The notes under the pieces were generated by a model, which ran no database searches, was not told the DNA's origin, and worked only from the letters and a program-made list of their open reading frames with translations. A DNA stretch of 63,927 bases, filler included, from Hausera hauseri (taxonomy: Eukaryota): NCBI GenBank assembly GCA_046269625.1. It is 11 parts of 11 records of this genome, joined end to end, with 100 filler letters (N's around TTAATTAATTAA, not from the genome) between each part and the next. Parts side by side here need not be neighbours in the genome. Positions count along the whole stretch, not along the records: positions 59,545 to 63,927 come from JBJURY010608110.1; 10 more parts are not named here. One strand, given 5' to 3'. Numbering within the stretch: the first letter of the stretch is position 1; every line of letters starts with the position of its first letter. Positions 18,150-63,927 of the stretch are shown here, piece after piece. The translations under genes were made by a program, and so were the position numbers.

Positions 18150-18151
18150 CA

Positions 18152-32105: not shown

Positions 32106-32147
32106 ATTCGGTGTAAATTCAAGTGTTTGGTGTGGTAACGAAACACA

Positions 32148-34632: not shown

Positions 34633-37080
34633 TTAAACGTTTGCGTCGAACAAGTTCTTTAAAATATGTTCAAATCTGGATTGTAATCCATTGATATAAT
34701 TCATTAAATAGCATTTGCTTTCGGGACCAATAGTGTAGGTTTTTGAATCAACAGTTTCATGGATAATAACGTGAGATATATTATTTATATTGTTCAATTT
34801 CACTGTTTTTTCGCTTACTAATATAAATTGAACGGAACTCTTCCGGATTTGACAATCTTTGAATACTATTTCAGGATTATTTAAACTGATATTAACAGTA
34901 AACTCCGGTGCACTTTTTACCTTAGGTATGTAAAACTTTTCCATTTCCGTCGAAAAAGCATTTCTGAGGTTCACGGCCAAATCTTTTACTTGCAATTCAA
35001 TTTCACTGATCGGTTCATTTGATTCTAATAAACTGAACGTTATATTTCCGTCTTCGTCTGGCGATCTTCCATCAGTTATGGAACTTTTATCCTCATCATA
35101 CTCAGCATCGGATGAACTTTCAGCCGCGTTTGTTAATTGGTAACGTGGATTATCAGACCAATGTTCGATGACTTTCAAAACAAATCCACCGGAATCCAAT
35201 AAAGCTCGTTTCGAAAGTTTTAAATGTTGAATACATTCTAAATAACGCAGTTTGAAAGACCAATCATTCCAAGAAATACTATCTAATTTGACCGTAATCA
35301 AATTGACACCTCCGCACTCAACGAACTTCCGAATACAATTATCGGACTCCGTTCTCAATAAAACGTCGATCAAATTGAAAAATGATTCATTTTCCAAACA
35401 TTCATCCTTCAGAACAGTAATCAATTCGGAAACGTGATTGGTTTCTTTCAAAGAATTTCGCAAGGTAATTTTGTTAATGAGATCTTTACGTTTTCGACTT
35501 TCAGACTTTTGGATTTGGTCTCGGAGTTTTTCGTTGGGTTTTCCAAGCAGTCCAGTGCAATTATCGCTACCGCAAAAGCATTTTTGTTCAGTCGTTCCAT
35601 ATTGTTGGAACTGATAATCGATAGTTATCTCTTCGTTTTCTTTTATGTATCTTTTGGCGAAAATCCCGATACGGGTTTTTCCATTGACGACCCATCTTTC
35701 CAAAATGGTATTCGGATTGCATGAGTGATTGACAAATCTTGACCAGTTACCTTTGATACCAGCATCGATGAAGAGATCCTTTTGCATGGACATAATAAAG
35801 TGATTGTTGTACGTTGTTTCTTGATTTATTCTATTGGTAAATTCGTTGAAATCGATAAGTTCACCGACATATTCGATTATAAACGCACCGATTGAAATCG
35901 GATTGACAGCTCGAATACCCCAACCTTTTTCTGGACCGCAATAAAACGTCTCTATTTGGGCGTATGACTGTTCTTGGAAACGTCGATTTGTACATATACC
36001 ATACACAGGACAATTTCGATTACATTCAATTTTCACCTTACGATTAAAACAATTCTCGTCGCAAGCCGCTTTGCCCAATTGGATTTCGTCCGGGTCTGGT
36101 GGAGTACAACTGCAAGCGGTACTTCTCAGATAAAAATATTCGAATTTCTTCCCGATTGCAGATGGATGAATCTCTGTTTTAACAATGTGTTCATATATTG
36201 GTCTTTCAACGTCCGGGTATTTGGCAAATGGATCACAACTGTCATCATCGTTGAATTCAAATTCTCCACAAGAACTGAGATCATCTTTATCAGATAGAGC
36301 TTCACTGATTTTGATGCTGTTGTTTGTTTTGGTTGAATTCGAAATACCGTCGACGTCCAATACCTCATCGATCTCAACTGAACTAAACGATGAACGTAAC
36401 GTCGAATCGCGTATATTCTCATTATGCGTATTATTCAAATACAAATCATTCATAAATGAAATACGCGAATCTAAGTTATCCATATACTTATTTGGAGTAA
36501 CAATCGAGTTCGCATCATTCGCATCGACCTGTTGACATGGAACTGTAATCAATTTTTGAATATGAGAAACAACATCACTTAATCTTTGCTGATTATTGTA
36601 ATTCTCAGATTGGGAGAAATTGTTACAATGGTTATTCATATTTAGCTTTTCTGAAAGACATTGATAATCATAAGAAGGACCACTTGTACTCATTTGACAT
36701 GAAACAAAATTGTTAGGCTGAGGATAAAATGCGTTCACGTATGATGGTTGTTCAAATGTTGGTAACATACGTTGAGTTGAATTTGGAAGAACTGTATTTG
36801 TCAGGTTTTGAATATTGTCATGGAAAGGAGGTCTGAAGAGAGACTGTTTGTAACACGAATAAAAATCTGTGGCATTTGATTGAAAGACATTTGGTGAGGA
36901 GTAAAGATTATCAAAACAATTATTAAAAAGAGATGTGTTTACAAGTGTGTTTATTGGGACTTGATTCAGTGAATTGAGTTTATCATAAGGCGAAACTGAG
37001 TTGGAATTTAATGAACTCATCATAAAATAAATGGGATTGAAAGGATTACGATTGTCGCCGGATAAAATAGTATGATTCAT
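34633..37080 (-). CDS. SETD2: SETD2/Set2-like histone H3K36 methyltransferase, intronless, with no recognisable WW or SRI domain
   Basis: AWS (CSC...CDENCFNR..KIEC...CTNRRFQ), SET (KGWGIRA, EYVGE, GNWSRFVNHSCNPN, EEITIDY), post-SET CFCGSDNCTG, then a SETD2-like helical domain and FYIPK motif. Confidence 0.85.
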   Translation of the reverse strand: MNHTILSGDNRNPFNPIYFMMSSLNSNSVSPYDKLNSLNQVPINTLVNTSLFNNCFDNLYSSPNVFQSNATDFYSCYKQSLFRPPFHDNIQNLTNTVLPNSTQRMLPTFEQPSYVNAFYPQPNNFVSCQMSTSGPSYDYQCLSEKLNMNNHCNNFSQSENYNNQQRLSDVVSHIQKLITVPCQQVDANDANSIVTPNKYMDNLDSRISFMNDLYLNNTHNENIRDSTLRSSFSSVEIDEVLDVDGISNSTKTNNSIKISEALSDKDDLSSCGEFEFNDDDSCDPFAKYPDVERPIYEHIVKTEIHPSAIGKKFEYFYLRSTACSCTPPDPDEIQLGKAACDENCFNRKVKIECNRNCPVYGICTNRRFQEQSYAQIETFYCGPEKGWGIRAVNPISIGAFIIEYVGELIDFNEFTNRINQETTYNNHFIMSMQKDLFIDAGIKGNWSRFVNHSCNPNTILERWVVNGKTRIGIFAKRYIKENEEITIDYQFQQYGTTEQKCFCGSDNCTGLLGKPNEKLRDQIQKSESRKRKDLINKITLRNSLKETNHVSELITVLKDECLENESFFNLIDVLLRTESDNCIRKFVECGGVNLITVKLDSISWNDWSFKLRYLECIQHLKLSKRALLDSGGFVLKVIEHWSDNPRYQLTNAAESSSDAEYDEDKSSITDGRSPDEDGNITFSLLESNEPISEIELQVKDLAVNLRNAFSTEMEKFYIPKVKSAPEFTVNISLNNPEIVFKDCQIRKSSVQFILVSEKTVKLNNINNISHVIIHETVDSKTYTIGPESKCYLMNYINGLQSRFEHILKNLFDANV

Positions 37081-37927
37081 TGTTGAAGATTTTGATACGT
37101 ATTTATCACATAATGATTTGAAATTTGTTTTACCTCGACATGTAGAATCTGGAATAACAACACAATATGTTCAACAATTAAAATACTGTGCGTTCACTTT
37201 GAAATCCCTGTAAAATAAAGACCAATGGGATAAAATTGACCAAACTTGGCAATTTTATAAAGTATATAATGATTTTATCTCCGGAAAATAAGTAGTTCAA
37301 AAGTCGCTAACAGGTGGAAATTTAACGTATATTAATGACAGATTTTTATAAATACTAGTCATCATAATACAAATTCAATGTGCTGTGCTCTATTTTCCGC
37401 AACTATTTTAAAGTCCAAAGAATTTCAACTGAAGTGTCACGATTATTTCGGTGATAGCATATTTCAAATCTGTTGCGAAGTCAACGTCATTAATAAACCG
37501 TCGTTTTCCATCTGATAGTGACGTCTCAAACTATTTTTGCATGACATAAATCCCATAATTTCTTATATAATATTTCCAAGTTTGATAAATTTCGACCTAG
37601 TAGTCTTCATTTTACAGACGTTTCGAAGTGCAACTTTAATTATGAACACCCTGTATTTTAAAACCCATATAAACATATTTAACCATATACCATATAAAAC
37701 TGGAAAAATTATTTCTTAAAAAATCAATTATAGCGAACTTTGGATGACCTGCTTACGATAATTATGATTAATTATATACCCTCTATATCAAAAATCTGTG
37801 TGCATGATTAATGAAAAAGTTAGATGANNNNNNNNNNNNNNNNNNNNNNNNNNNNNNNNNNNNNNNNNNNNTTAATTAATTAANNNNNNNNNNNNNNNNN
37901 NNNNNNNNNNNNNNNNNNNNNNNNNNN

Positions 37928-40670
37928 TATATAAGGATGTGCAGCACAACTATGATTTCCAATGTATCAAGTTCCCTCCATCCATAGATGAAGTTAAAAA
38001 ATTTGAAAAGTCAACAACATGTCCATCAATATCTTGGGATTGGACGAGGATGATAAATTTTATCCCCTGCAGATATGCAATGCTGAATTGGAAGATCATA
38101 TGGATTTTCTGCTACTAGACGATGGAGAAAAGAAACATTATGTTTGAATCAAAGACTTTGAGCGGCTAGTCAGATTACAAATTACGAAACATCATGGGCA
38201 AATAGAAATATGTAAACGGTGCTTGTCCTATTTCAGTGACAGGTTAGCTGTGGAGAAGCCGAAGGAGCACAAGATGTACTGCAACAACAATTATTGTATC
38301 AGGCCAGATTTCCCCAAAGAGGACTACATTGAATTCAAGGAGTTCTAGAAGAATATCAAGGTCCCAATAGTTATCTATTGCGACTTTAAAGCGGTGCTGC
38401 ACCTAGTTCAGAGTTGCAGTCCTAATCCCCAACACAGCAGCACAACGTCATACCAATATCATGAGCTCTCATCATATTGCTTGTATGCCAAAGGACTGGA
38501 CAGTGAATCATATCTATTTAGAGGTCAAGGCGCAGCAGCTCATTTCATAAAGCGACTTGAAGATATGGCTCATAGGCTTGGCGATATGTTGCGGCAGCAT
38601 AAGGATACAATTAGCATATCGGAGCATTAAGAAAAAGAATGGTCCAAGGCAACAGCATGTTACTTGTGCGCCAAATCATTCACTAAGGGTAATTATAAAG
38701 TCAGAGATTATTGCCATTTTGCAGGCAAATATCGGGGCGCGGCATGCAACAACTGCAATCTGAACTGAAAAACATGTGCATATGTGCATGTAGTGTTCCA
38801 TAAGCTCAGTGGTTATGATTCCCATTTCATTGTTCGGGAACTGGGGAGCATTCAAGGAAACATTGATGTGATCCCTATTAGTGAGGAAATATACATCACC
38901 TTTACTAAGAATGTTTGGAAAATCAGGCTTCGCTTCATAGACAGTTTCCGTTTCATGTCGCCTTCACTTGACAGTTTAGTGAAGAACCTCCATGCAGAAG
39001 AACTCAAGGAGACGAAGCGGTTTTCCCCACTGCATTTGACCTAGTCAAAAGGAAAGGCGTCTTTCTCTATGACTATATAACATCATGGGAAACACTGGAT
39101 GATACCTCATTGCCGGCCAAGAAGGATTTTTCCAATATCCTCTATGATTGCGATATCAGTGATATGGATTACCAGCATGCTCAAAATGTCTGGCATTCAT
39201 TCCAATGCCAAACATTAAGAGAATACAGCGACATATACCTAACGACGGACGTGTTGCTTATGACGGATGTCTTTGAGTGTTTCAGGTATGTTACGATAAA
39301 AAACCATGCATTGGATCCCGCTCATTTCTTTACGGCTCCAGGGATGAGTTGGCAGCTATGCTGAGATATACAAATGTCAGGCTTCAGATCATAAAGGATT
39401 ACGACATAATATGCCAGGCAATCCACTGGTATAGTAGGGCCAACAACAAGTATATGGTCCAGTATGATCCATTTAAAGAATCCTCATATATATATCATAC
39501 CTGGATGCCAACAGCTTGTATGGATGGGCAATAAGTGCTCCATTGCCATATGATAACTTCAAGTTGGTTGAGCATCCCGAAGACATCCCTATACCGGACC
39601 TTCATCCCACTGAAGATACGGGTTACATACTGGAGGTAGATGTGGAATATCCGGCATCTATCCACACAAGGTATGAGCAGCTGCCATTCCTTCCTAGGAG
39701 CAAAAGACCACCGAATGGGGGATTAGAAAAATTACTGTATATGTAATCCACTACATAAATCTCCAGCAAGCAGTCAGAAATGGACTCGGGGTTATTAAGA
39801 TTCATCAAGCCCTGCAATTCATCCAGTCCATGTGGCTACAGCCATACATAGATCTCAATACCAAGCTGCGGACCAATGCCAAGAACGACTTTGAGAAGGA
39901 TCAATTCAAGTTATACAACAACAGTGTTTTTAGCAAGACCATGGAAGATATCCGCAACAGGATCAACATCAAACTAGTCCCTGACTGGAAGCGGGAAAAG
40001 AAGCTTATTGCCAAGCCCAATTTCCACAGCAACGTCATAAATGCGGAGAACTTGGTCAGCATCCATATGCTGAAAACATCCTTGAAATTCAACAAGCCCA
40101 TATATGTGCGTAGGGCAATATTAGACCTGGCAAAGACCCTGATGTACAAATTCCACTATGACATTACGATACCTAAGTTCGAGTCTATGCAGCTTATGTA
40201 TATGGATACTGATAGATTCACCTATCAGATCCATAGAGATGATATTTATAAGGACTTTGCCCAATTGGTGCATCACATGGATACCTCGGATTATCCGAAG
40301 GAACATCCCAACTATTCAGTAGCCAACAAAAGGTCCTTGGGAAATTCAAAGACGAGGTGAATGGAGCAATCATCTCGAGATTTGTTGCTCTTAGTTCCAA
40401 AATGTATGCCACTGATATATGTGGCGAAGTAAAGAAGCGGGCTAAAGGGGTTCAAAGGGCGACCTTAGCCAAGAAGATTGGCTTCAATGACTATGTTGGA
40501 GTTCTGCATGAGCAGACTCATATCATATCAGAGATGCGAAGGATCCAGTCTAGGGCTCATAACATTGAGACTGTAACATTACAGAAGAAAAGCTTAGATT
40601 GGATGGATGACAAGAGGCAGATCCTGGTGATGGAAGCCATACACTACCTCACGGACATGTGGCATTGTAA
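37928..40670 (+). pseudogene. polB: Protein-primed DNA polymerase B (Polinton/Maverick), copy 1
   Basis: EndoVII-like zinc motif (VRDYCHFAGKYRGAACNNCN), FHKLSGYDSHF, FIDSFRFM, DANSLYGWA, KLYNNSVF, YMDTD, SKMYA, DDKR; many stops and frameshifts. Confidence 0.92.
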
Positions 40671-41251
40671 ATATGTACATATTGTTATTCTTTGTTTAAT
40701 AAATCTTGTATAGAAATATCGTGTTTTCTTCTTGATCAAGTAATGTGGGATATAGAATAAGGCCAAGTAAAACTAAGTAACTAATATGTAGAATAAAGCC
40801 AACTAATTTCACAACACATTTATTTCATAACAATATAACTTTGGCATAACGCTAAACACTGTTTAATGTGTGTGTGTGTGCTTGTCTGTGCTTGTAGAAT
40901 GTAAGTAACCTGAGAAAAGGCATGGCTCAGATATATGTCCGTGTGTTTGCTTGGATGGGTGTATGTAAAATGCAACTAACTTGGGAAAATATATAGATCA
41001 GATATGTCTGTGTGTGCATGTGTGTAAAAAGCAAGTAATATTTAGCTAATATGACTAATATGCAGGTAATACACGGGGATTATGTATGTGATATATGAAT
41101 TATAGAATGTATTGGGTATGAAATACATGCAGCATATATGGGTAATCTACAGGTACTATATATGTAATATTTTTCGCAATATATCTAATGAAGATATTAT
41201 ATAGGTAACATATGTCCTATCAAAGCAGTGCATTTGAAACTAATCAATAGA

Positions 41252-43295
41252 TTAATGAATATGCTCATTAATACAATGTATCAATGCACTAATCAATACA
41301 CTAATCAATACTGTCTCAATGCTATGATTCCTAGATTGGATCCTTCGCATCTTGGATATGATATGAGTCTGCTCCTGCAGAACTCTCACATAATCCTGAA
41401 AACTGATCTTGTTGGCAAATGTAGCCCTTTGAACGTCCTTGGCTCTCTTTTTGATTTGACCACATATGTCTAGAGCATATATTTTAGATCTGAGAGCCAC
41501 AAATCTCAAGATTATTGCTTTATTCACCTCATCTTTGAATTTCCCAAGGACCTTTTCTGGCAATTGATTAGTTTGGATGCTTCTTTGGATAGTCCGAGGT
41601 ATCCATTTGTGAGCCAATTGGGCAAAGTCCTCATATATATCATCTGTATGGATCTTATAGATGAAATTATCAGTATCCATATACATCAGCTGCACGGACT
41701 TGAACTTGGGAACCATGACGTCATAATGGAATTTATACATTAGGGTCTTTGACATGTCGAGGATTGCCATACCCATGTATATGAGCTTGTTGAATTGCAA
41801 GGATTTTTTCAGTATATAGATGCTGACAAAGTTCTCAGCATATATGGTGCAGCTGTAGAAGTTGGGCTGAGCAATGAACTGCAGGGCTCTATTGATCTTA
41901 GTAATACGAAGTCCATGTTTAACTGCCTACTGGAGATTGATGTAGTGAACTACATACCCCTCCCTATTACCCATATGGCAGAGCAGCTTTCTATGCTTTC
42001 CAATGGGCCAAGGGCCGGTTCTCAGGGCGGAAACGCAGCTGTTGATGCCTTGCGTGTAAAGAAGCCGAATATTCTATATCTATCTCCAGTATGTATGCCG
42101 TATCTCCAGTGAGATCCACATCTAGTATAAGGATGTTTTCAGGATTCTCGACCCATTTGAAGTTATCATATGGCAATGGGGCACTCATTACCCATCCATA
42201 CTAGTTGTAGGTATTCAGATGTGATATATATGAGGATTCCTTTGTTGAGTTGAATTCGGCCATATACTTGTTGTTGGCCTCACTATATCGGTGAATGGCT
42301 TGGCATATTCCGCCTCTTATGCCTCTCTCGATCATAAAAATAACATCATAATCCTTAATGATCTGCAGCCTAATACCAGTATAGCGCAGCATTGCTGCCC
42401 AACTCATTCCTGGAATCATAAAGGAATGAGCCGGATCTAAAGCATGGCTCTTTATTGTAACATCCCTGAAACTCTCAGAGACATCCGTCAGCAGCAGCAC
42501 ATCGGTATGGAGATATATAACACTATATTCCCCTATTGCCTTGCATTGGAATGCATGCCAGACGTTCTGAGCATGCTGGTAGTCCTCATCACTTTTATCG
42601 CAATCAGAGAGGATATTGTAAAAGTCCTTCTTGGCCGGAAATGAGGTCTCATCCAGTGTTTTACTATGAAGTTATGTAGTCATAGGGAAAGGCGCCTTTC
42701 CTCTTGAGTAGGTCAAATGTAGTGAGGAAGTATCGCTTCGTTACTTTGAATTCTTATGCAGGGAGGTTCTTCACTAAACTGTTCTGTGAAGACGACATGA
42801 AACCAAAGCTGTCTATGAAGTGAAGTCGGATTTTCCCAAAATGCTCCGTAAATGTAATATACTTCTCCTTACTATTTTGGATCACCTTAATGTTTTCTTC
42901 AATGTTGCCTATTTCTCGGACTATGAAATGGGAATCATAGCCGCTGAGATTATGGAACACTACATGCACATATGTGCATGTTTTGCAGCAAAGATTGCAG
43001 TTGTTGCATGCTGCCCCTCGATATGCATCTGTAAAATGGCAGTGATCCTTGAATTTTCAATTTTCCTTGGTGAAGTACTTGTCGCACAAGTAACATGTTT
43101 CTGCCTTGCGCCATTTTTTTCCTGTCTCCACGACATGCTCATATTATGCTTATGCTGCTGAAGCATATTTTCAAGCTTATCAGCCATGTCTTCAAGTCTC
43201 TTCATGAAATGTGCTGTTGCACCTGGACCTCTGAAATGAAATAGATCACTGTCCAGTCCTTTGGAATACATGCAATACGATGAGAGTTCATCATA
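41252..43295 (-). pseudogene. polB: Protein-primed DNA polymerase B, copy 2, convergent with copy 1 and internally deleted
   Basis: FHNLSGYDSHF, FIDSFGFM, GIRGGICQA, YMDTDN, LGKFKDE, RSKIYA; closely similar to copy 1. Confidence 0.9.
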
Positions 43296-46286: not shown

Positions 46287-48000
46287 ATGAAATTTCAATT
46301 GAAAACTATCAAATACAGGATCTCCTCGGTTTTAATTCCTGGTTATGTGCGGGAGTGTGATTATTCAGTGAAGTCACCGAGAGAAATTCTCAATTGGCAA
46401 TATTGTTGTCTAACGAATTCTCCTATCTGGGTAAGCAAACTCCCAAAGATGTCATGTATTAATGTCACCGATGCGGTCAATTCTAATTTGCACGATGGTA
46501 CGATGCTTTGGTCCAACAAATGCACAGATTTCCATTTGTTATTCGATCAAAACGATTTTGGGCGATACGCCTACTGTTTGGAGCTTATTTCACTAAAACG
46601 CTTGATCTTGGATTTTACTGTCTTTTGTGAACGAATGGAGGATTGTTCAAAAGACTTACTCAAAGCAGGAAGTCATTGGATACATGAGCCGATGAATAAT
46701 AATTGGTGTCAGATTAAGGTAATATTCTTTTCCATTGTAAAATATAATGCTGAAGTTAAAATATTTGCATACTATTTGTTGGAGGCTTGTTCGGCATTTT
46801 CGGATGATATTTATAATATTTATAATATTTCGGATGATAATCCTACCCAAACTTCAACCCCTATAGATTCAAAACAGATTTTAATATTTTGAAAATATTT
46901 CGATCCTGTCAATAATTCAATGCATTTCGTTGGATGGGTATATTATGAAATTGCTTTTCAAGTTAGAGAACTATTTCCTGTTTTAAGAAAGCCTGTACAC
47001 ATCCGAAAATGTTCAGGTGATATCATGGGAAGAACGAGGACGAAATCTAACCGTGATAAATTCTAGTGAAAGCTTCATATCACCAATTAATGGAATGATA
47101 ATTATACTTGAGCCAAATGTCAAACCATCCTTATATAAGATCTCTAGGAGTGATTCCCCACAGTATATATAATACAGGTTCTCTTTCTTCACCAATTTTC
47201 AACGCGAAAGATTTCCTAGAAGATTTCCGACAAAAAATAGATGTAGAATTTATTAAAAAAATTTGTGAACTTACTTTTAGAGACATAAATAATAAACCTA
47301 GCCATATTAGAACAGTTATTCGTCTTTCACAGAATGCTAGGTACAGTGAGATTCTTAAATCTCTCGTTTTACATATTTATGTGGCTGACGTAGCTAAAAT
47401 TCAACTTTATAAAACTTCGGTACAGTCTCATAGATATAAAACCAAGCTTATTCCCGGTGATCCCGTCAGAACAACCTTCGACGGAACGTTAGGTATCTAG
47501 AAAATTCTCAAATTCAACAGCAAATTAATGTCATTCTTCCACGTGGAAAGCCAAATCAAAATGTGCCGTTAATTTACACAAATAATCAGCCTTTATCTTG
47601 TCCGACTGGGAATTTTCATTCTGCAAACTGTTACAGACGTCTCTACTTCCAATTATTAAAAATTCCAATTCATGAAGTCGAAGCTATGCAACAGTTTTGC
47701 TGTGTTTTTGTTGATATTCATGTTCAAGAACAAATGGAAATTATAGTAACTTTGCCTAAAATTGGAAGTGCATCAGATTTATTAGCTGAGGCTAAACGTC
47801 AGGCAAGATTAACAAATATAAATTCTCGTTCCTATCGACTCTTCGAGGTTGTTAATCACGGAATCATCAGTCTTATTCCATTGAAACGGAAAATATCAGA
47901 GTTGGAACCGAACGCCGAATCTTTTGGCACCGAATTGACATGGAGTCTTGATCGAATACGTGTATATCGTAGCAAACTGGAAATAACCCAGGTATATAAA
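46287..48000 (+). pseudogene. USP7: Intronless fragment of the USP7 C-terminal Ubl region (about Ubl2-4), no catalytic domain; in-frame stops
   Basis: QILIF*KYFDPVNNSMHFVGWVY...VRELFPVL; AKDFLEDFRQKIDVEF...PGDPVRTTFDGTL; LYFQLLKIPIHEVE...GSASDLLAEAKR...YRLFEVVNHGI. These are collinear with USP7 as recalled (MLFLKMYDP, AKEYFRDLYHRVDVIF, PGNPLRHNYEGTL, LYYQQLKM, GCVRDLLEECKK, LRLLEIV). Confidence 0.8.
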
Positions 48001-48459
48001 GTGAAAAGTCATTTAGATGAAATTTTACCGGCCGAATTAAATCATTATATTTATCGCAATATTGACAAAAATGATCATGCGGAAATCATGTGCCAATCGG
48101 AAGTTGTTCCTGTTGAGGAAATTGCCATTGAATCGGATAAAGGAAAATTGTCTGTTGGAATAAACTCCTTTACCAAATCGGACGATTCGAACAGAGTTGG
48201 ACATAAAATTGTCAGTCATGTCGCAATTGCGGCTAGCGTCGCACCTGAGACGCCTTTAGCAAAATCTGCCAAATTACAACTTGACGATAATACTGTTGGG
48301 TCTGTGGTCAACGCTGAACTGCAAGCGGGGTCCTCGGCTACCCAGCAGTTTGCGGCCCGTCACGGCGCGACTGAAGCCCCGGCCGTCCACCCTATGCCAT
48401 TGGGTCAAACGGCGCCGTTCATTGCCGCACTACGACACGCCCCAGGCCACACGACCCCT

Positions 48460-51400
48460 CCTTATCTCGTTTTCTTTTCTCTAAACAACAGACACATTTG
48501 CACACATACAGTAAAACATGTAAACACAGCTGCCATCCATAAAATCATCTCCACTTCTCTTCACTCCTCTGACTTCGATCTTACACAATGGATCTGTAGT
48601 GCCCTGCGCTGGACCCTTCCAACCTTCTACAATTTGTGTCTGCCTTCACATTTACTTCCGTATCCGTGGTGGCATGGATTTACCACCCACAATTGATACT
48701 ACGGACAAACTCACCAAACCACAGATATCTATCACTTACTTACCCAAACAAAGTGCTTCAAACACTTTGACACAACACACACTCCTCACTCATTCACCCT
48801 GCACAGAATACTTCCTCGACAGCCAAAACTCTACTCAAACTTGGCTAAAACTGCATCAATTCTGACTCCAATCAAAAAACGTCGTCGACTCTTTATCCAA
48901 AGCCAACTGCGTTTTTTTTCATTTACCAGCTTCCATCAAAACTAAAATTACCAATATCATCGACATCCTTCATCACACCGACCCCTATACTCAACTTTTT
49001 AATGCCGTTCTCAAGCTTACTGAGCCGTCAATCGATTCAATCATGCAAAGATTCTTCAACGACAACACCATTGGCCTTCAGAAAACCTCTGAATTCTTGT
49101 ACACATCTTTGTGTCATCTCACTACCCTTGGCGTAACATCTGAGCATAGTCCAGAACTTCGTCGCTATTTTTAAATGCATTGCCCCTTTAAACAAGAGCT
49201 TTGCTTACTGTGGTCGAGGACTCCACGGCTCTGGAAAAGCTAGCCGAACTGGCGGCTAAAGCATATGAAGTACTGCACTTACACACAGCACCAACTATCT
49301 CTGCGGCATTAACAACAGACCAACAACAACAAAATGCAATGCTGCAGCAACAAATTGCGCAATTACGCAGGGAAAATGAAATGTTACAAAAGACAATTAA
49401 CAACATAAATGAGAAATTAAATGAGTTAACGCTGCTTCGACGAGGTTTTTCTATGGCTACTTCCCCTAATGTATTTAACCAACGTCAAAGACGGTCACCT
49501 TCACCCGCGCGGTTGTCTATTTGTTACTACCATAACAAATTTGGTAATAATGCTCAAAAATGCTGCATCGGTTATAAATTTTACTCCCCCAATTTCAATA
49601 AAAGCAACATTGCTTGCATCTATTACTCGAACTTTGGCACAAAAGCACAATAATGCCTACCTGGCTGTAACTACAACACACACAATAAAACCAACACTAC
49701 TATGCTCACACAAAACAGTAGGCCAAACTCACCAGCTACAAAAAACGGATTTCGCCGCTAAAACACACTGCAAGTTCTAGCAAAGGCAACAACATGTAAA
49801 AAGATAACCGACACATTTCCTTTGCTGTATTCACGTTGGAAGCAGCAGTTGTCACCCCAACAAAGCAAAACATTAACTTTCTTATAGACACCGGCGCAGC
49901 AATCTCTTTACTACCATCAACACAGCATATCCAAAACAATTTCACTTCAAAAAAGCAACTGTTTACTGTGTCCGGTGAAACTTTACAAATTTTTGGTGTT
50001 ACCAAATTAACGTTAACTCTTCCACATTTCCCAAATACATTCACTTGGAAATTTACAATAGACAATATACGCACACCTATATTAGGTTCAGACTTTCTGT
50101 TCCACTACAATTTACTTGTAGATTGCAAACGATGTTCCTTAAAGTGCGGAAATAATCTTAACCAAATTAGCAGCATTTCGGTGACCACCCGGACGATCGC
50201 TTATATCAAGTCAAGACTGAAAAAAACGACCTCCGATTTGAATTATTTTTATAATCACTCATTATACAGAAATTTTTACTACGGTGACATATGCGATATT
50301 GCCAACTGCGTGGCACCTATTACTGATAGTACAGCTGCCAACACCATATTCAACACGAACATCCTGCAACAAATACCGTCTAGTCACAACATCTTGTCTA
50401 CAACTCATAGCGCAACTGCATCCAGTTACGATGCATCGACACCATCGGATAACTTTTCATCGTTGCCTTCTGATCCACAGCAATACATTTCGTCTTCCTG
50501 CACGCGTCTGTTGCAGAAGGACAAATCATTCGTACTACCTCAATCCACCTTCCATCACATATTAACAACACATCAAAGACCAATACGGCAAATGGTCCGC
50601 TGGTTATCGACTCGCCGGAGACAGGCAGTGGAGGCTGAGTTTCTCAAACTGGAAAGATCAGGAATAATCAGAAGATCCAAATCCCCGTGGTCTTCACCAC
50701 CGCATGTGGTTCCAAAAAAAGATGGCACTTTTCGCCCATGCGGTGATTATCGCCAACTCAATATCATAACAACAATGGATGCCTACCCTCTACCATTAAT
50801 CAACGACATTCTTTACATGCTCCATGGTTCGACCATCTTTTAATGCATTGGTTTACACAAAGCATACCACCAAATTCCGGTGGCCCCAGCAGACATTTTG
50901 AAAACGGCCGTCATTACACCCTTCGGCCTTTTCGAATATCTGTTCATGCCTTTTGGACTCGGTAGCGCTTCCCAGACCTTCCAAAGGCATACTGATACAG
51001 TTCTATCAGGTTTAGACTTTGCTTATCCCTATATCGATGATATCTTATTTGCATCATCCTCCTCGAAACAGTACTCCGAACACTTACGTTTGACCTTCCA
51101 ACGCTTGCACCAAAACAATTTGCAAATTAATTTCGCCAAATGCTTTTTTTCAATATAAGGTCAACTTCCTAGAATACCTTATTAGCTTCTCCAGACATTC
51201 ACCTCAGCCAGAGCGCATAACAGCTAAAAAACATACAACTACCATGTACATCAACATAGATGTGTTCTTTTCTCGGAACCTTGCACTTTCTTCATAAGTA
51301 TGTTCCACACTGCTCCACTCTAACCGCTCAATTTGCATCACTAAGCTCTGGCAAGAAAAAACAGCCTATTCAATGGACCGCCAAGCTAGTCAACGCTTTC

Positions 51401-53485: not shown

Positions 53486-54650
53486 TCACACTCATATGTC
53501 AATAGAACTTCTCCGGTTACTCGTCTAAAAACACCTTCCTTCATCGGAATTATTGGTGATGCCAACTCGGGATTTGCCTATATTAAAGCTAATTTAGTTC
53601 TCATGATTTCCAAATCCAATTTACAGTCGTTTGTTATCACTTTACGGTATAACTCGGCTATTCCGGCTTGTCCTTTATAGTAGAAATAGTCGTCTCTGTT
53701 CTTCAAATAGTCTTCAATCCGGATGTCCTGAGTCTCGAGTGTGAACGTTCTGGAGTTTATTTCTGTCTCGGCTACGAAAAATGCTTTATAGTTGGTGGCA
53801 TACATTACGACGTCGCATCTGGTAAGCATAGCCTTTTTTTTACCAATTTCAGCCCATGAGTGTCAGAGATCAGTATCGTAGGTGTGGACTGTTCGGCTAC
53901 ATCTTCTCGTGTTTTAGAGTTAGTTTCCATGCTACTTATGTATCGCTTTCTTGCCGTTTCGTTGAATTTAAGCTCTTTAATACTGATAAAGTTGCAATCG
54001 GTCTTGGCTGGAGTTCCCAAATTATTACGGAACTTCGAAACGGGCATGTGCCATCTTGAATGCGGCATTTGTGGTTATCGGTGTAAAGTTTAGTAACGCT
54101 ATGAAACATCACTTTCTGTATACGCATTACGGTTTCGTAAAAATCCACTACTACGACGTTTGACTCTAATCCCATTCTGGTATCGTATTCCGAACCGTGA
54201 CAATATCCAGTATGCATATCCAGCCTTCCTGCTGCAACTTTATACACTCTGATTATTTTCCCTTGCTGCATTTCCATTTCCGTATTATCCCATTTTATTC
54301 TCCCCGTTTCTTTAACTTGCTTACAATGCTGTGGCTCTAAATTCATCGGAATTAGTGAAGTTGTTGGCTTTATTACTGACGAGTGTCCATGTACCACTCC
54401 ACAATGGAAAATGCTGCGAGATCGCCGCAACATACATTCTACTCCGTCTAGTTCGCGTTGCTGATATAGTATATAACTTTTTTCTTTTGTTTCTAATCTG
54501 TGGGGCCTCACATTTTCGCACATTTCCAAGTCCATTAACGAATATTTTTGCCGAGTTTGAATTTGTCACAATCATATACTGTGACTGCGCCCATTTGCCT
54601 TATTAACATCATCACGGTCAAAAAATTGATTAGCCAGTTCGATTCATTTC
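53486..54650 (-). pseudogene. Chuvirus-like class III (gB-like) glycoprotein, truncated by the contig end
   Basis: AVTVYDC after a hydrophobic leader; ECMLRRSRSIFHCGVVHGHSS; GYCHGSEY...NVVV; LYRKVITNDCKLDLEIMRTKLAL; VTGEVLLTYEC. Confidence 0.8.
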
Positions 54651-57600
54651 CTCTGCGATTTCCAGTCACGTTTCGCAGCAGATATCCAAATCTATTGTTA
54701 TCGAAGAAGAATCTATTTTGATGCTCTTCTTCTTTTCGAATAGCTTCGTCCAGTCCACTTCTCAGGGCAGTTTCCTGGCAGCCTTCCTTGCCAAGCTAGT
54801 AGCCTTGTTAAATTTACTTTCTCGGATCGGGTTGGTTTTGAAGGCCAGATATAACAACACTTTTCTCAATTCCTCTATAGTGTTTCTTACCATAATTTTC
54901 TCGATTATCATTTCATCGCTTAGAGTACTTCTGGTTAATTTTCACCGAAGGCCTTTCATAGCCTTTGCGGCGTTCGCTATGGCTTTCTCTTTCTTATCTA
55001 ATACATCACCGCCGAGGCTAAAGTTGTTTACTATTCGTATCAAGTCTTTCATTAGTTCGTTCAGTCCCTCATTATCCACATTAAAGGGCGGCAGGGACAT
55101 TTGTCTCAACTCTTGATTAAATCTCCATTGCAATCGATTTCCTCTCGTGTTTTCCGCGGCCTACTGACAGAACGCTTCTGTTTTATTAAAATAGGTACAT
55201 TGCTATTTATGGGTACTAAATTTTTATCGTATTGTTCATTATCTTCATTTGTCTGGAGATACTCGAAATATGCTGTTGGATCTCGGACTCCTATTATTTG
55301 TCCTACATGTTATTCTGCTTTAACCTTCCTTATAGCCTCGTCCTTTGTTTTGTCGATTGCGGTAGTTACCACTAACCGGTTTGCCTGACCTGGAATAATT
55401 CCGACTTCTATCAATAATTCCGACTCGTCTAGTATCCTTCATCTAAAATAGAGTCTATAGCTTGGCTGGTGGGCGTATTTATTGTTCTTTATACACAGTA
55501 ATACATCTTTTTCAAGGGAGCGCGTGGTAAACTCTTATTCCTTCTCGTCTATCCAGTCTGATGTTATCTTTACCGGGAATATTTCCTCTGCCCTTGCCTT
55601 TAAGTTTTTGGCATATTCCTTGAGTAAAATCTTAGGTACCGTACTGGAAGTCGTTATTTCGCTAGCTAACTTAGTTAAGGTAGGAACTAGATGTCTCAAT
55701 TGATTTTCAGTGAGGTTCACTTCAATTAATTGAATTAAATCCTTTTCGGTTTGTACCGGGTCCAGAAGCATTTCTACGTTGAACTTTTGTTCCAGATAGT
55801 ATACATCCCTTTCATCCAATCGTATTGGGGTTTTCTGATTCTTGGCAATCACTGCGTATTATTTTTTTCCCAATCTGAATCGTTTTTATTGTCCGGCGAT
55901 TAATAACCCTTCAATGGTATATCAGGTGGCCTGTTCACACTTGCGGTCCATGTATTTTTTCTGACTTATTGTAGTTTCTGTTGCATTTGGACCATTTTCG
56001 TCGTTCGGAAACAGCGTTTATTATCAGAAGTTTGGCGTGACAGTGTTAATAACGAACATAATTCTTCGGGTGAAATTAAACCCTCTTCTTGATATTTTGT
56101 TAGTTCAGACGTGACATCTCTTTCCCATCTTTGAATGAGATGTGACTTGTCAGCCTTTTCTGCTTTTGTAAGGGCGTATTTGATTTTATATACTTTGAGC
56201 TCTCTATCTTATTCGTCTAATCCTATCGCTCTCTGCTTCGTCTTAATGCAAGTTTCTTCGACTTGTTGTATCTGCTGCAACAATTGTCTTAACCTTTTAT
56301 CTCTAATTTCTGCCATTTCTGCCGCCAATAGCAATAATTCATACATTTCGTTAATACTCTTCGAATCGGGATCTATTACATATAATAATTTTTTTACAAA
56401 TTTGATCTCTTTGAAGCTAAGGTGATGGTCATTCTTTATTTTAATCAGTTTGGTATGATAACTTTGATCTATTCCACCCCTCCATTCTTGGGGGCAATTT
56501 AAGAACTGCACCGCTTTTTCAACGACTGACCGATATTCGGGACAAAAATCTAAGGTTTCAAGATCTTCGATTGAGATTGCTTCGATAGGCTTGGCTGTCA
56601 AATACCGTATTCCTTTCAGGCGGATATCTCTTAATCGCGGATAGAAATCGCAAGTCGTATTTCGCTTCCGCACAAAGTTTGTTTCTTCGACCATCTTATA
56701 TATTTCATCTAGTATAGTCATTTCTTGTTTCTTTTTCATAAAGTCCAATTTGTGTAATGCATCAAATTGGGTTCGGATGTCAATTTCTGCTTTCATCGTG
56801 TCTAGATTTTGAGCGTCTTCCTCCAATTGTTTCTTTACTGTTGGTTTGCTATCCGGGAACTATTTTTTCCGACTTTCTACTAATTTACGCAACTTTGTTA
56901 TTACATCGGACCATTTGTTCAACTGATTAGCGATTTATGGCTTTACCAATATTGCTTTGTCTAATATTTTGCAAGCGTCCTCCAGCTCATCATCTGGACC
57001 TTGGATAAAATCGAGGATCCGGCAAGCATAGTCAAATTCGTCTTTATATTTGTCGAATTCAAGAATACAAGTCATAATTATTTTCTGTGTTTCATTATTA
57101 TTTGGATGCATGATTCTATTCCCCAGGCTGTATATTTGGGACCTTTCTCGGCCTCAATTCTAATACGGTTTTCCAAACTTGTATACTGTCTAGTTGCATT
57201 ATTTATCATTTCCGTTAGGTGCGGAATATCTAATAAATCTATGCCCATTATTTTTAAATCGACCTCAGTCCGTTATTTAACCGGTTTCTTTTTCAGTCGG
57301 TCGAATATGATGAATGTAATTTCATCCATAACACGCTTTAAGTTACGTACTACTCTTTATAATTTCGGGTTAGCTTTTAATGTAGTCAATAGAGACTGAG
57401 CTAGGTTGATTCTAGCTTCGATGTCTTGAGTAGTTTTATCCCATGCTTCTGAAGTTTCATTCCACTTTTCGTCCATCGTTCTAATTCGTGTTTCCACTGA
57501 GCTAGTGTTTCTTCTGCCACTTCCTCAGGATGGTCTAAGTCTATGGCTTCGCTTAGTTTTCCTTCACTGTATAGTTTCATCTTTTTTTATAATCTGTCTA

Positions 57601-58179
57601 GAAACTGTTGTTCCTTGCCAGAAATATCAACTTGATCACTTATTGCTTTTAGTTTCGCTAGATTCTGTTGTACTGCCTCTGGATTGAAACAATTCATCCT
57701 CATTCTTTTTAATTCTTTGGCGTTTTTCCACGAGCGTCTGACGTACCACTTTTAGGATCGAGTTTGTCTTCTGGTTCTGCTTCCTCTTCACTAGAAGGTA
57801 AAGGACATATATCATTTATTTTATTTATTGATTCCGTTCGACTACCCATTTCATTAATTTCCGGAGTGTTCCAAGCAAACTCAGTGTCTCTCTCCAGCAC
57901 GATTTTTGTACCTCTCTTTGTGTCCGGCTTCTTAGTCATCGGGGATCTCAAACGATCCTTACGTTTCCGTCTCAATGATGGGCTACGGCCTATATTCTTT
58001 GTAATTTTAAGGATTAGTGGTTCCAGAAACTCTTTTTCTTCGTCTGACTTCACCTTTTGGAGCACCTTTCTTATCGTATACTCGGATGCTACATCTAGAT
58101 CTACTTTTTGCGGAGTCTCAGATTTTCTTGATTCAATTAACTTTTTGTTTATCGCAGGAATGTTCTTTTTTCGTGCCAT
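54650..58179 (-). pseudogene. Long fragmented ORF2 between gag and the glycoprotein: charged/coiled-coil regions, a helical domain and a Ubl domain (55361-55582)
   Basis: ORF fragments 57709-58179, 56209-56826, 55535-55852, 54942-55133; read-through gives FPVKIT...YRLYFR*RILDESELLIEVGIIPGQANRLVV. Confidence 0.55.
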
Positions 58180-58257
58180 ATCACTCAGCCTTGGTGGGGC
58201 AATGGAACGTTCATATTCCGTTTCTGGTTCGCGTATACCGTAATAGACTTCTAATAG

Positions 58258-59355
58258 TCATAATGGGTGTTCATACTCGTTTCTAGCTACTAAAACTTTG
58301 GGGTCCTTCGTATCAGGCTGGGCCTTTAGAAAACGGCGTAAATCCTGTATCTCGATAATCATTCCTGTGTCTCTATGAACACCGTAAATTGCTTCTAAAT
58401 TTTTATTTTTAATTACGTCAGTCTTACTAGGTTCCACAAACAAGACATTTCGCGAATTCGGACAGGATATTGCTATGAGTCCTTCTTGTTTACATGTAAA
58501 ACAGACTAAATTGCCATTTTTTCCAACTCTTTGTCTGCCATCTTCGTTTAACGGAGATTTAGATCTACTCGGATTTCCATTGTAGTTTGGTTGCGACGAG
58601 ACCTGTCTAGGGTCTCCATATTGGCGATTATCGAAATTTTGGCTGTCATTCTGTCGATTAAAATTATTGAAGCCATCTAGGCGTTTATGCGTATGATAAT
58701 TTAATTTATTGGAAAAACTATTTCGACTATTATCAAAATTCTGATTACTATATAGCTCGTTTCTTCGGTCATAATTACTGTTCTTGTTCCGATCCCCATA
58801 ATTCCTGTTATATCGTCTATCGTTTCTATTATTTCGATTTCTGTTGCTTCGCTCTCCTTGTTCATTATTTCTATCATTTCTGTCATTGTTTCTGGCATAT
58901 CTATCCAATGCCATTTTTAAGTCCTGAGCTAATTGCAATATCCTATCAAAATTTTCCGGTCGTACTAGAATCAATTGCTTTACTATGTCTTTAGACCAAA
59001 TACCATTTATTAATTGCGTCATCATCATGACGTCTAAATCTGGCGGACTTGCTTTTTCTGCAGCCTCACATTCTGTTTTGTTTTTAGCCTTGGCTATGTT
59101 TGCTATTCTTAAGGTGCTTACGTAACTATTTGCATATTTCTTTAATGCAAAAGCGAATTGGGTTATCGATTTACCCTTTTGTTGCACTCTATTCTGAAAA
59201 GCCATGAGTTTTTGTTGCGGAGTTACAGTCGGTAACAATTTTCGATTTAAAGCTCCTACCAGCGAAAACCAAATTTTCTTCTCATCATCCGTTAGTTCAC
59301 TATAGGCATCGGCGGCCAAATTCTTCAAATATAATGACAAACGCTTAATCATCAC
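58258..59355 (-). CDS. gag: Ty3/Gypsy-type Gag, 5'-incomplete
   Basis: RLSLYLKNLAADAY...FQNRVQQKGKSITQF (Retrotrans_gag-like); N/R-rich linker; CFTCKQEGLIAISC degenerate CCHC knuckle. Confidence 0.8.
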   Translation of the reverse strand: MMIKRLSLYLKNLAADAYSELTDDEKKIWFSLVGALNRKLLPTVTPQQKLMAFQNRVQQKGKSITQFAFALKKYANSYVSTLRIANIAKAKNKTECEAAEKASPPDLDVMMMTQLINGIWSKDIVKQLILVRPENFDRILQLAQDLKMALDRYARNNDRNDRNNEQGERSNRNRNNRNDRRYNRNYGDRNKNSNYDRRNELYSNQNFDNSRNSFSNKLNYHTHKRLDGFNNFNRQNDSQNFDNRQYGDPRQVSSQPNYNGNPSRSKSPLNEDGRQRVGKNGNLVCFTCKQEGLIAISCPNSRNVLFVEPSKTDVIKNKNLEAIYGVHRDTGMIIEIQDLRRFLKAQPDTKDPKVLVARNEYEHPL

Positions 59356-59544
59356 GTTAGATGCTAGTCCAGCACCTTCTGTGTGTAGTTTATGTCCTTA
59401 AGAATTTATTGAGTATGTCCGGATCTCTATCATATGCAGGCAAANNNNNNNNNNNNNNNNNNNNNNNNNNNNNNNNNNNNNNNNNNNNTTAATTAATTAA
59501 NNNNNNNNNNNNNNNNNNNNNNNNNNNNNNNNNNNNNNNNNNNN

Positions 59545-59920
59545 GGAGAAAAGACTAGCTATAAGAAGAAATCCAAAAAGGATGGAAGAGCACTACCTAA
59601 CATAGATTCCGAAGGAAGATTCAAATGTTTTAATTGTAATAAATATGGACATATAGCGAAATCATGTAGATTACGTAGAGGAGACTCTTTAAAAGCAAAT
59701 AATAAGAATAAACAAAAGAAGGATCACACATCAGCTACGTCAGACGAATCATCGGATAGAGAATATGAAACGGAGGATAGTGAACCAGAAGTTAAGAAAA
59801 AAGATAAAAAGAAAGAAAGTGTCAATTATATAAATGATACACTACCTCAACACATGAAAAAGCAATTAGAGATAGAACTACAAGAGTACAAAAGACAACA
59901 GCAAAGATTGAAAGAGTAAT
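59545..59920 (+). CDS. gag: Gag C-terminus with CCHC zinc knuckle
   Basis: Manual translation GRFKCFNCNKYGHIAKSCR (59626-59667). Confidence 0.75.
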
Positions 59921-60233
59921 ATATACATGGTAGGAGATCAACCGGAGAAAAGAGCATCTCATATAGGAAGGAAGAAATGTAATAAGAAAATAATTGACGT
60001 AGAAGTTGGATCAAGAGAAACGTCAACAAAGGGGGAAGAGGTAGTGAAAGGAAAGAAAGGCGGAAGAAGGAAGAGTAACCTTAGTACACCCTCATTGGAC
60101 GAAGACGAACCTCAAGTTACACTAATATTTGACGAAGCTATATTAGGTAATAAGAAACCCAGGTGTAAATTTAGACAAGGAGGAGGATATCATTCAGGCA
60201 GTATTAGCTGTAGACCCTGGTAATATAATCGAT

Positions 60234-63200
60234 GTGGATAAAACGACTACCACGATATTGAAGATAATCACCAGTAATATAACGGTAGAAAGAATGAACG
60301 AAATTGTACATCAATTGGTATTATTAGCCCAAGATGCCAGTCGTGTCAGAGAAATAGCCAGGACAGTATTGGCCAAAGCCGCAGAAGATGAGAAAAGCAG
60401 GAATGAAGCTGTACGAATAACAATAAGAGAAGGAAACCATGATATGAGGGTCATCAGGATGAATGAAATAGATGACATACAAACTTTAAGAGAAAAGATT
60501 AAGGAGTTGGAGCCTTTCTACCAAGGAAGCCCGTATGGATTAAATTATTTTGGAAGGACATTATACAATTATGATAAGTTATTAAGAATTGGATGTAGAA
60601 GTGAGAACTACAATCCAATAACGATAACTGAGGTTCACCTAGAGGCAAGAGCGCAAGCAACAGTGGAAAATATTCTAAGAGAAATGGAACCGCAGAAAGT
60701 AGAGAAACCCATGGGCGATACACAAGACGTCACAGTCCAGACGGAAGCCAAGAGAATAGGTAGGCCGAGAGGGAAAAAAATAAGTGACATACGCAATAGA
60801 AAAGATAGAAACGAAGAAATAGTAAGACGTTTGTTGTTAGCAGGAACAAATGGCACTCCCGAATCGGAAGATATTAATCCATTGCTAAGAACGTTATTGG
60901 CTAGGCTGCATAAGTCATTTGCCTCATTTGACATGCAGACAATAATCCCAGATGAACTGTTTACAACGTTACGTAATAATATGCTACGAATAAGTCGACA
61001 ATTATATGAGAATTTAGATGAAGAACGAATAATCGAATTACATGAGTTAAATATTTTGGAGAAGATGTTCGCAACAGGAATCACACGAGATAAAGCTCAA
61101 ACGGCTATATCTAATCTTCTGTATAAAATAATAGTAATTAATCACCAAACTCAAAATCTAGAAGAGATTGAACGAAATATAAAGACAGCCGTAAAGATTT
61201 TAAAGGATACGCTAGGAAGCTGGGCTCAATGTAGAGGCGGATGGTTGAACTGCCTGATGACCAATATAATGAGGTCAGGAGAACGAGAAAGATTAGTAGA
61301 TACACCTACCACAACGCAATCAAACGTCTCTAGACCAGGCATGACAAGTATATTAATAATGGAAATTCTTCAAATTCTCTTAATAACGTCGCAATTAATG
61401 CCAAAAGCCGTAGGTATAGTGGCTTACTATTGCTCTAAACCTAGCAAAGGGCAGAAATACTCCCTAATAGATTTGGAGAAGTGTCCAGAAGCCGATTTAG
61501 AACAGTTAACAACTACAGGTGGGCTTACATACTGGATATACCAAGCATCTGAGTTTATAAGAGCAAACGTCATGGAATGTTACGTGAAAAGATGATTTTT
61601 CCTGTTTAATTGTGTTCATTATTCGGGAAATTCGGCTATAATCGTGCCCATAACACCTTTCGAAACAATAATATCACAAGCAGAATGCCAGGATACTTTT
61701 AAGATTGTTATAATAACTATACAAAACGCACACATACCGGCAGTTCGAAACAGAATAAAATATACAAGAATTTTCATGGCAGGAAGAATAGACAAAAACA
61801 ATGGAAGGCACCTGTAAAGGAATGGATTACGATGTTGAAGGTACCATCGCGCTCAGAACAGTGGCCATAGAAGATTACCAGATCCAGTTGAAAGAATATG
61901 AGAGATTATTCGATTCACAAACAAAATTGTTGACGACTATAAGTGAGTCCGAATATGATAATGGCGAGTGAGTTACTGGAGAGTCAAAAATGACATGGGA
62001 AACATCGGCAAGTAAGTGTCAGTTGACACTGTTAAAGGAAGGAAAGTTTAACAAGACAGTAGGAAAACGGCAGAAAAAGAAACAGCGACATATAAAGAAG
62101 GAGCAAAGGAAGTCAAGATGATTGAAGTAGCTACAATTGTATATTCGGAAAATCCAGAAGAAATGATGCAATTCAAAATCACTGGAGTAGCAAGTAAGTG
62201 TAGCGAAGAAATATCAAAAACTAACTATAAGAAATACCCGGGGCAAAAACTAAGATAGATAATAACGATATCATGCTAACACAATATTTCGACAATAATA
62301 TCGATATCCTAATTAATTATGTGAGGAAAGAAATTAGAGGTCTGTATCGAGAAATAGTAATGAACGAGTGTCAATTGAATTACGAAATAATGCGTAATAA
62401 AATGGCATTAGCAATCACAAATCCAGACATGGTAACGCCGGTGATGCCCTTTGGGGATGGAATTATCGGAAGAGTGATGGGCGAGGTACGGTTAACAATA
62501 GAATGCAAGAAGGTAGAAGTATCAATCAGACCAGTGGACGAATGTACACTGGAATTACCGGTAGTTTACCACACGGAAGCGAGATATGTGATGCCAGTAA
62601 CCCGAATATTATTAGATATTAACGTGAAACCTACTCCATTATACAATTGTACCTTCAATATGTCGCCAATGTTTAAAATCGATAATGGAAAATGTATCCG
62701 AATGCCCAAAAGAGAGCCAGTGTCCAAACCGGAGACATTAAGTTTGATTAATCTGCAAAGGAACCAAAAATTTGAACCATTAACAGGAATATCTCAGGGA
62801 GGAATTTACACACAACAAAATCTAGAGGATTACCGACGTATGTTACTCTTTCCCCAACAGAGACAGAGGGTTATAACAGAACTAACCAGGAGAGTAATGT
62901 GGGATGGTAAAGGATCACCACAATAAGAAAACCTAATGGGTAAGGACTATCTAAAAAGAGTAACAAAAAACGTTATTGAAAAGATGTGGGAAAAGTTCTT
63001 ATATTTCGGTCAAGCAGCTTCCGGTTTTTTAGCTGTATATTTCATTATTAGCGCCATACGGACAGTTTTTATGGCACTAGGTAAGGCATATGGAATACAT
63101 GCAGCAGTAGGATGCTCATGGAAAATCCTAATAGCTGTAATACCAGCAGTAGCAAGCTGTTTTCTAGCAAACAATGATGCACGATGGAAGAGGACAATAT

Positions 63201-63535
63201 TACAAAGGAAAGACATAAAAGGATCCCTGTGTAATATACCTAATGATAATGATGTTGGATATAATCAGGTAAAGGCAAAAACAAAATACAGTCGAGTAAC
63301 CGAAATTAAACAACTAGTGCTGAAGACACGAAAACCGAAGTACAGACAACAGTTGATAACTGACATACCTCACCTAGATCCAGTAGATGAATGCCATGGA
63401 CAGTTATATAACGAGCAATCAATAGTAAACCCCTCTGCTGCTCGATACGTAGTGCATACAGGATTATACCCAATGCATCAAATACAACAGATGCAACGAA
63501 ATCTTGACGAAAACGTGATACCGTATAAACGCTAA
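60234..63535 (+). pseudogene. ORF2-Env polyprotein: helical domain, Ubl (60411-60644), then chuvirus-like class III glycoprotein; fragmented
   Basis: Signal-like ILIMEILQILLITSQLMPKAVGIVAYYC...YSLIDLEKC; LYREIVMNECQL; MGEVRLTIECKKVEV...ECTLELPV; GGIYT; C-terminal hydrophobic FGQAASGFLAVYFII...GCSWKILIAV. Confidence 0.8.
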
Positions 63536-63569
63536 TCTACATATAAAACTGATGATAAAAATGAACTAC

Positions 63570-63927
63570 AACCACGTATAAGGCCAAAAATAGCGATAGA
63601 GGTGACTGGATACCCAATGACAGCGTTGCTTGATACGGGTCTACAACGACGATAATGGGAAGGAGCCAATTGCCGAAAGAGTTAAAATGGAAATTACAAA
63701 AACCAACAACTACTTTGGTGAATGTAGGAGCATTCGGTACAGAAGAAGAAATTAAGAGGGTCTTAGATGCAAGAATTAAGATCGGTAAGCAGACCGTGGA
63801 ACATACTATAAGGATAGCTGAGCATCTGGCTAATGAAATTTTAATTGGACGCGATATATTAAACCAATTGGAAAATGTTTACATAGATTTAAAGACATGC
63901 CAACTGAAGACTTTCGGTGAAGATAGT
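63570..63927 (+). pseudogene. pol: Retropepsin (start of pol), frameshifted, runs off the window
   Basis: RPKIAIEVTGYPMTALLDTG(fs)STTTIMG...ILIGRDILNQLENVYIDLKTCQL. Confidence 0.8.

Follow-up and report, generated by a model that had tools for sequence, protein, structure and literature searches.

The segment at positions 60411-60635 probably encodes an integral ubiquitin-like domain (UBL) without a GG end, and its identity can be assigned with considerable confidence, namely as an integral UBL on the Gag side of what was probably a single Gag-Env(-Pol) polyprotein of a compact gypsy element resembling Burro. The window, that is, the whole stretch of 63,927 nucleotides of Hausera hauseri DNA that was analysed, consists of short contigs chained by N44-TTAATTAATTAA-N44 linkers and, therefore, neighbours across the linkers are not genomic neighbours. 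Considering the element as a whole, the best explanation, which is judged somewhat probable, is an integral UBL in a Burro-like Gag-Env polyprotein that would also carry an ER-anchored host-control cassette. The features of the element, together with one feature of a sister element, are the following:

59545-59919 (+): gag tail with a CCHC zinc knuckle at 59623-59670 (Pfam zf-CCHC, E 1.2e-5)
59912-60223 (+): basic/acidic linker in a frame of its own, with a spacing equal to that of residues 294-378 of the homolog P0003
60165-60410 (+): helical domain of no known family, adjoining the UBL upstream (22% identity to P0003)
60411-60635 (+): probable integral ubiquitin-like domain of the RAD23/ubiquilin type, with no GG end and with polar equivalents of the Ile44 patch (Pfam on the homolog, PDB profiles, Atlas)
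60759-60773 (+): GRPRG basic motif, presumably AT-hook-like (RGRPKG in P0003)
60807-61256 (+): Bcl-2-like domain, nearest to BOK (E 0.0072; 45% identity to P0003)
61068-61094 and 61221-61244 (+): BH1-like motif and BH2-like motif WxxxRGGW, respectively, inside the Bcl-2-like domain
61341-61418 (+): hydrophobic stretch, likely the Env signal and the membrane anchor of the upstream part (Kyte-Doolittle peak 1.67)
61419-63535 (+): gB-type envelope glycoprotein of the Monjiviricetes fusion family (Pfam PF24664, E 6.5e-40 and 7.7e-14)
63536-63927 (+): start of pol with a broken aspartyl protease (Pfam RVP, E 3.2e-5), where the window ends
55259-55804 (-): diverged and decayed helical and UBL-like cassette of the sister element, in the neighbouring contig

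The UBL segment is located inside ORF A (60147-61595, 482 codons), whose final 76 residues are the start of a Monjiviricetes-type fusion glycoprotein. The original prediction had placed it correctly in a frame running into the envelope, with positions 60411-60644 encoding the peptide then quoted plus three residues. Since the contig from 59545 to 63927 holds a gag tail, followed by ORF A, the broken remainder of the envelope gene, and the first part of a protease, Env lies between gag and pol, and the position of the PF24664 Env between the CCHC knuckle and the RVP domain is that of gB-type errantiviruses (Ty3/gypsy) with the GAG-ENV-POL order. The capsid part is absent from the gag tail because the contig begins at 59545. 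This copy of the element is decayed. Its gag, linker, and ORF A occupy three different frames, and the envelope gene, which contains hydrophobic stretches at 63023-63079 and 63113-63169, is interrupted by stops and frameshifts. The protease, with its LLDTG motif at 63626-63640, is in frame with the Env end past one stop, while gag and ORF A are out of frame.

An exhaustive phmmer search with the region upstream of G, described in the original prediction as a cytosolic leader, against 1.84 billion representatives returned one match, P0003 (1130 aa, E 5.9e-49), whose identity to ORF A is 35% across 495 alignment columns. Unlike the window's copy, P0003 is open from Gag to Env, and its single frame comprises, in order, a Gag capsid, a CCHC knuckle, a linker, the helical domain, the UBL, a GRP motif, the Bcl-2-like part, a hydrophobic stretch, and G. 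When the whole of P0003 was compared with the PDB by phmmer, its capsid matched dArc2 (E 0.0068), which was the only match, neither the UBL nor BOK being matched. P0003 is collinear with the window from the gag tail, which aligns to its residues 169-294 (E 7e-8), through G; the linker itself was likened to P0003 by eye only, while the equality of its spacing is alignment-based. Env is reached at residue about 800 of P0003, about 600 codons from its one CCHC knuckle, and the sequence ends within Env. Because P0003 is one open frame collinear with the window, what was taken for a leader is the central part of a Gag-Env polyprotein. Thus, the earlier description stands insofar as the UBL precedes the signal peptide of G, but the region is Gag-derived in this open homolog. 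Moreover, P0003 keeps the UBL as an integral, non-cleavable domain ahead of the hydrophobic signal of G, in agreement with what had been proposed. A profile search for further protein relatives matched P0003 alone, and no relatives of the element were found among the metagenome and viral contigs searched. Word-indexed protein searches with ORF A at near or longer lengths gave no match; they are regarded as weak because the first one missed P0003 itself.

The likeness of the segment to ubiquitin is drawn from searches that, when taken singly, all lie below the family cut-off. The UBL peptide alone matches no Pfam family at E<=1 and nothing in the PDB at E<=10, and the likeness is drawn from homologs and from profiles built with them, which align the whole domain. 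Pfam ubiquitin is detected on P0003 473-522 with an E of 0.031 and 14.5 bits, under the cut-off of 25.4. A two-sequence profile with the homolog P0003 retrieved the RAD23A UBL from the PDB as two of its six matches (E 0.32 and 0.46, aligned over residues 7-84 of 89), and a three-sequence profile, which adds the sister element, retrieved ubiquilin or RAD23A UBLs as six of its eight matches over the whole domain (E 0.12-0.52), the remaining two being Gag-like dArc2. The AofleA lectin, which makes up two of the six matches of the two-sequence profile (E 2.1), was taken as chance. In the Atlas, ubiquitin or Rad60-SLD clusters account for four of the seven matches among the rows listed (0.88-0.91), with rows sharing 128-154 features with the UBL, where same-family matches typically share 170. 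The integral UBLs of RAD23A and of ubiquilins 2 and 3 (PDB 8q06, 2wyq, 1j8c, 2nbv, 1yqb, and 1wx7), which likewise have no GG, are aligned over the whole domain. A C-terminal GG, which characterizes conjugated or cleaved ubiquitin-like modifiers, is missing from the end of the UBL both in the window, as the original prediction had stated, and in P0003, and the sole GG within the first 400 residues of ORF A is at aa 364, in the BH2-like motif of the Bcl-2-like domain.

Structure prediction did not confirm the fold, since AlphaFold reached a pLDDT of 39 for the UBL alone and of 41 for the two-sequence cassette. The cassette model renders the UBL segment helical, and only its helical domain (60165-60410) attains a pLDDT of 60-70. 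Searches with Foldseek and VIA-align are uninformative because of these low values (the best Z was 2.5, and a ubiquitin-fold protein ranked 31st of 42 with Z 2.1, the query being a low-confidence model), and the missing ubiquitin or Bcl-2 fold in them is no evidence. It could be argued that the segment does not adopt a ubiquitin fold at all and that a short alpha/beta domain resembles one by chance, as the unmatched peptide, E-values that all fall between 0.03 and 0.5, and the uninformative fold searches would allow. Nevertheless, this is very improbable: ubiquitin had been named beforehand and, hence, the convergence of Pfam, PDB sequences, and Atlas features over the whole domain outweighs single E-values; the single-sequence model, despite its pLDDT of 39, gives strand-strand-helix in the expected places; and a Ubi2/SUMO-like domain is also found before BCL-2 in Burro (PMC6431247).

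The UBL is under purifying selection among the copies of the family. Variants at 5% or more amount to 58 rows, and among the 40 listed 30 are silent, 10 are replacements, and none is a stop or an indel, with 29 of these 40 at third codon positions. The silent share expected is 0.28 (p 9e-10 for the 40 listed of 58), the rows being tallied singly, some of them within one codon, and not as independent events. The conservation in the family that had been anticipated is, thus, borne out by the excess of silent changes. The UBL segment is 32% identical to that of P0003, with a Smith-Waterman (SW) score of 117 compared with a maximum of 54 in 1000 shuffles. In addition, the family is high-copy, given that run X1, whose kind is unrecorded, has 14,501 contigs that map to the element, while its UBL stretch is covered by 909.

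Beside the UBL there is a BOK-like Bcl-2 domain that the original prediction had overlooked. Residues 269-370 of ORF A match BOK in the PDB (E 0.0072), with both of the two matches being BOK chains, and the part aligned with BOK (PDB 6ckv and 5wdd), about 100 residues, includes motifs resembling BH1 and BH2 and is followed by a hydrophobic stretch. Pfam Bcl-2 is found with an E of 0.073 in ORF A, where its score is below the cut-off, and of 0.055 in P0003, in which the BH1-like and BH2-like motifs are retained, and the Atlas gave no usable match with the Bcl-2 part of P0003. BH3 motifs usually carry a GD pair, and the BH3-like stretch of the element is degenerate by eye, without this pair. The hydrophobic stretch (aa 399-424) lies about 30 residues past the Bcl-2 domain and has a matching peak of 1.77 on the Kyte-Doolittle scale in P0003. 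Bcl-2 proteins are tail-anchored, and the position of this stretch makes it both the likely Env signal and the likely site of a Bcl-2 tail anchor. The arrangement of a BH1-BH2 core followed by a hydrophobic anchor, by which the Bcl-2 family is recognized, is therefore present, the fold being unconfirmed by the model. BOK itself is an ER protein under ubiquitin control; in contrast to BOK, the domain of the element forms part of Gag-Env, is probably anchored by the Env signal, and has a degenerate BH3-like stretch.

A second decayed element with a gag, a long insert, and a gB-type env is observed at 53486-59444 (-), with about 4.8 kb from the gag fragment to Env. A cassette profile matches this sister element with an E of 9e-7 among 858 six-frame pieces, and its cassette is located between its gag (58258-59397) and its G, which starts near 54565. 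The match requires the helical part as well, since a profile of the UBL only gives an E of 18 on the sister UBL, and Pfam ubiquitin was not found in the sister cassette. No Bcl-2-like part was detected in the sister element, where the helical stretch before the signal does not score as Bcl-2. Therefore, the function of the UBL is not necessarily tied to the Bcl-2 domain, as the sister keeps the helical domain and the UBL without a detectable Bcl-2 part. The helical domain at 60165-60410, with about 80 residues, belongs to no Pfam or PDB family and is common to three elements.

Regarding function, the original prediction had suggested ESCRT-dependent budding or engagement of the proteasome, and the composition of the putative binding surface argues against both. 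In profile alignments, the equivalents of L8, I44, and V70 (ubiquitin numbering) are G/N/T in the window and Y/H/C in P0003, the register being less certain for L8 and V70 than for I44, and the I44 equivalent is Asn in the window, His in P0003, and Tyr in the sister element. The UBLs of RAD23 and the ubiquilins bind through the same hydrophobic patch as ubiquitin, and this proteasome-binding patch is not found in the element. Since the I44 equivalent is N/H/Y, ordinary ubiquitin-binding domains of ESCRT and the proteasome are unlikely partners. The idea of a RAD23-style handle, by which the UBL would bring the polyprotein, or host proteins bound to it, to Rpn10/Rpn13 to be degraded or processed, draws on the fact that the nearest solved structures, the UBLs of RAD23A and ubiquilin, both belong to proteasome shuttles; it is very unlikely, as the patch that is hydrophobic in shuttle UBLs is polar in the element and Pfam scans of ORF A and P0003 revealed no UBA domain to accompany it. 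The UBL of the element also differs from shuttle UBLs in its setting, a retroelement polyprotein. Slightly less remote, though still quite unlikely, is the idea that the UBL, as a built-in mimic of ubiquitin, replaces a late domain by recruiting ESCRT for budding. The position of the UBL past the zinc knuckle on the Gag side and the absence of PTAP, PPxY, and YPxL from ORF A 1-400 and P0003 1-790 would suit such a mimic, and ubiquitin fused to Gag can substitute for late domains, but this substitution requires L8 and I44 (PMC2958808), whose equivalents are Gly and Asn here and Tyr and His in P0003.

The mechanism favoured over its rivals, albeit tentatively, is that of a UBL that acts as a non-cleavable docking module tuning the ER-anchored BOK-like domain. 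Firstly, the hydrophobic stretch after the Bcl-2 domain would target Env to the ER and, after cleavage on its luminal side, would remain as the tail anchor of the cytosolic part formed by Gag, the helical domain, the UBL, and the Bcl-2-like domain. Secondly, the UBL would serve as the non-cleavable docking module of this host-control cassette, binding an enzyme of the ubiquitin system or its own neighbouring domains via a surface other than the Ile44 patch. In turn, such docking may control how abundant or how active the Bcl-2-like domain is while the element replicates. A purely structural role, in which the captured small fold is a folding helper, a spacer, or a domain of the Gag lattice together with the helical domain and has no host partner, is unlikely, although it has points in its favour: the pair of helical domain and UBL is retained in the sister element without the Bcl-2 part, core motifs are retained while the binding patch varies between N, H, and Y, and identity to P0003 is lower in the UBL (32%) than in the Bcl-2 part (45%). 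However, the ubiquitin- and apoptosis-related domains of Burro (MATH, BIR, and BCL2; PMC6431247) point to host engagement. A more speculative and rather improbable reading regards the helical domain and the UBL as the oldest cargo, retained past the loss of the Bcl-2 part, which could act as a natural late domain with a ubiquitin fold or as a handle for extraction from the ER, engaging host machinery independently of the Ile44 patch, so that a Gag-Env polyprotein tethered to the ER would bud without PTAP, PPxY, or YPxL. If the UBL were shown to bring about the release of particles independently of this patch, it would represent a new kind of late domain. Within a coverage excluding subscription journals and Repbase, no functional study of this UBL domain was found.

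The original prediction also considered the UBL as a second recruitment of a ubiquitin fold, by a lineage unrelated to that of the RxRGG segments in the same genome. Four segments ending in H-x-R-x-R-G-G are observed, at 11446-11712 (-), 22594-22806 (+), 31870-32118 (-), and near 48659 (+), and they apparently precede gag in other gypsy elements. As claimed, no kinship with the UBL was found (hhalign probability 0.2%), but the first case is itself unproven, because the RxRGG segments match ubiquitin over the last 13 residues only (three of four aligned), and no Pfam ubiquitin or other family was found in any of the four frames. A second independent recruitment rests, thus, on this first case, and two independent captures of the ubiquitin fold are possible, as judged from these comparisons. 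The ubiquitin C-terminal motif kept on a diverged RxRGG body could be a candidate cleavage site for a host DUB.

Other features were recognized elsewhere in the window. A gypsy element at 1323-6883 (-) has two overlapping open frames, one gag-like (542 codons) and one for pol (1330 codons), with matches to PR, RT, RNase H, and integrase, and a USP7-like fragment (USP7_C2, E 9.7e-14) lies amid gypsy remnants at 47102-48696 (+). An open frame of 845 codons at 34633-37170 (-), with AWS and SET domains (E 3.4e-23) and no obvious intron over the frame, is presumably SETD2-like, and another of 769 codons at 12272-14581 (+) has no Pfam family at E<=1. Frames at 17643-19276 (+) and 39698-41926 resemble Polinton/adintovirus genes by eye, which we take to be capsid-like and DNA polymerase B-like, and no Pfam match was obtained for the three such frames scanned.

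Among known elements, GAG-ENV-POL elements with a gB-type Env occur in flatworms, including six in Schmidtea (Smed_errantivirus_1-6; PMC13524379), which share the order and the multi-copy state of the present element and whose rows for Env domains I-II look, by eye only, similar to P0003 and to the G of the window. The main text of PMC13524379 contains no occurrence of "ubiquitin", "UBL", or "Bcl", and Gag-Env cargo is undescribed there. The closest parallel in domain order is provided by Burro/GYPSM1, giant gypsy-like LTR retroelements of planarians with many copies, attributed to Grohme 2018 and Jurka 2007 in PMC6431247. According to the same source, the Burro polyprotein contains Gag, two or three CCHC knuckles, and a Ubi2/SUMO-like domain between MATH and BCL-2; its Env, related to mononegavirus fusion proteins, lies in frame between BCL2 and the protease; and its cargo includes MATH, BIR, and BCL2, from which an interference with host apoptosis and ubiquitination has been put forward as a suggestion (PMC6431247). 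The order Gag-Ubl-BCL2-Env-protease is likewise that of the present element and, since this layout is already published, the UBL does not represent a new recruitment, and the main contribution of the finding is a further example, compact and high-copy, with evidence of purifying selection. Its cargo is pared to the helical domain, the UBL, and the BOK-like domain, a small cassette that offers a tractable test of whether, as has been suggested, planarian retroelements interfere with the ubiquitin and cell-death machinery of the host. In contrast to Burro, which is giant, carries MATH, BIR, ankyrin, and Smc cargo, and has two or three CCHC knuckles (PMC6431247), the element is far more compact, P0003 has one knuckle, and Pfam scans of P0003 and ORF A detected no MATH, BIR, ankyrin, or Smc. 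Because the Burro order is present while its size and its MATH, BIR, and ankyrin cargo are absent, the element likely works like a compact Burro, the two being likened by domain order and not by sequence kinship.
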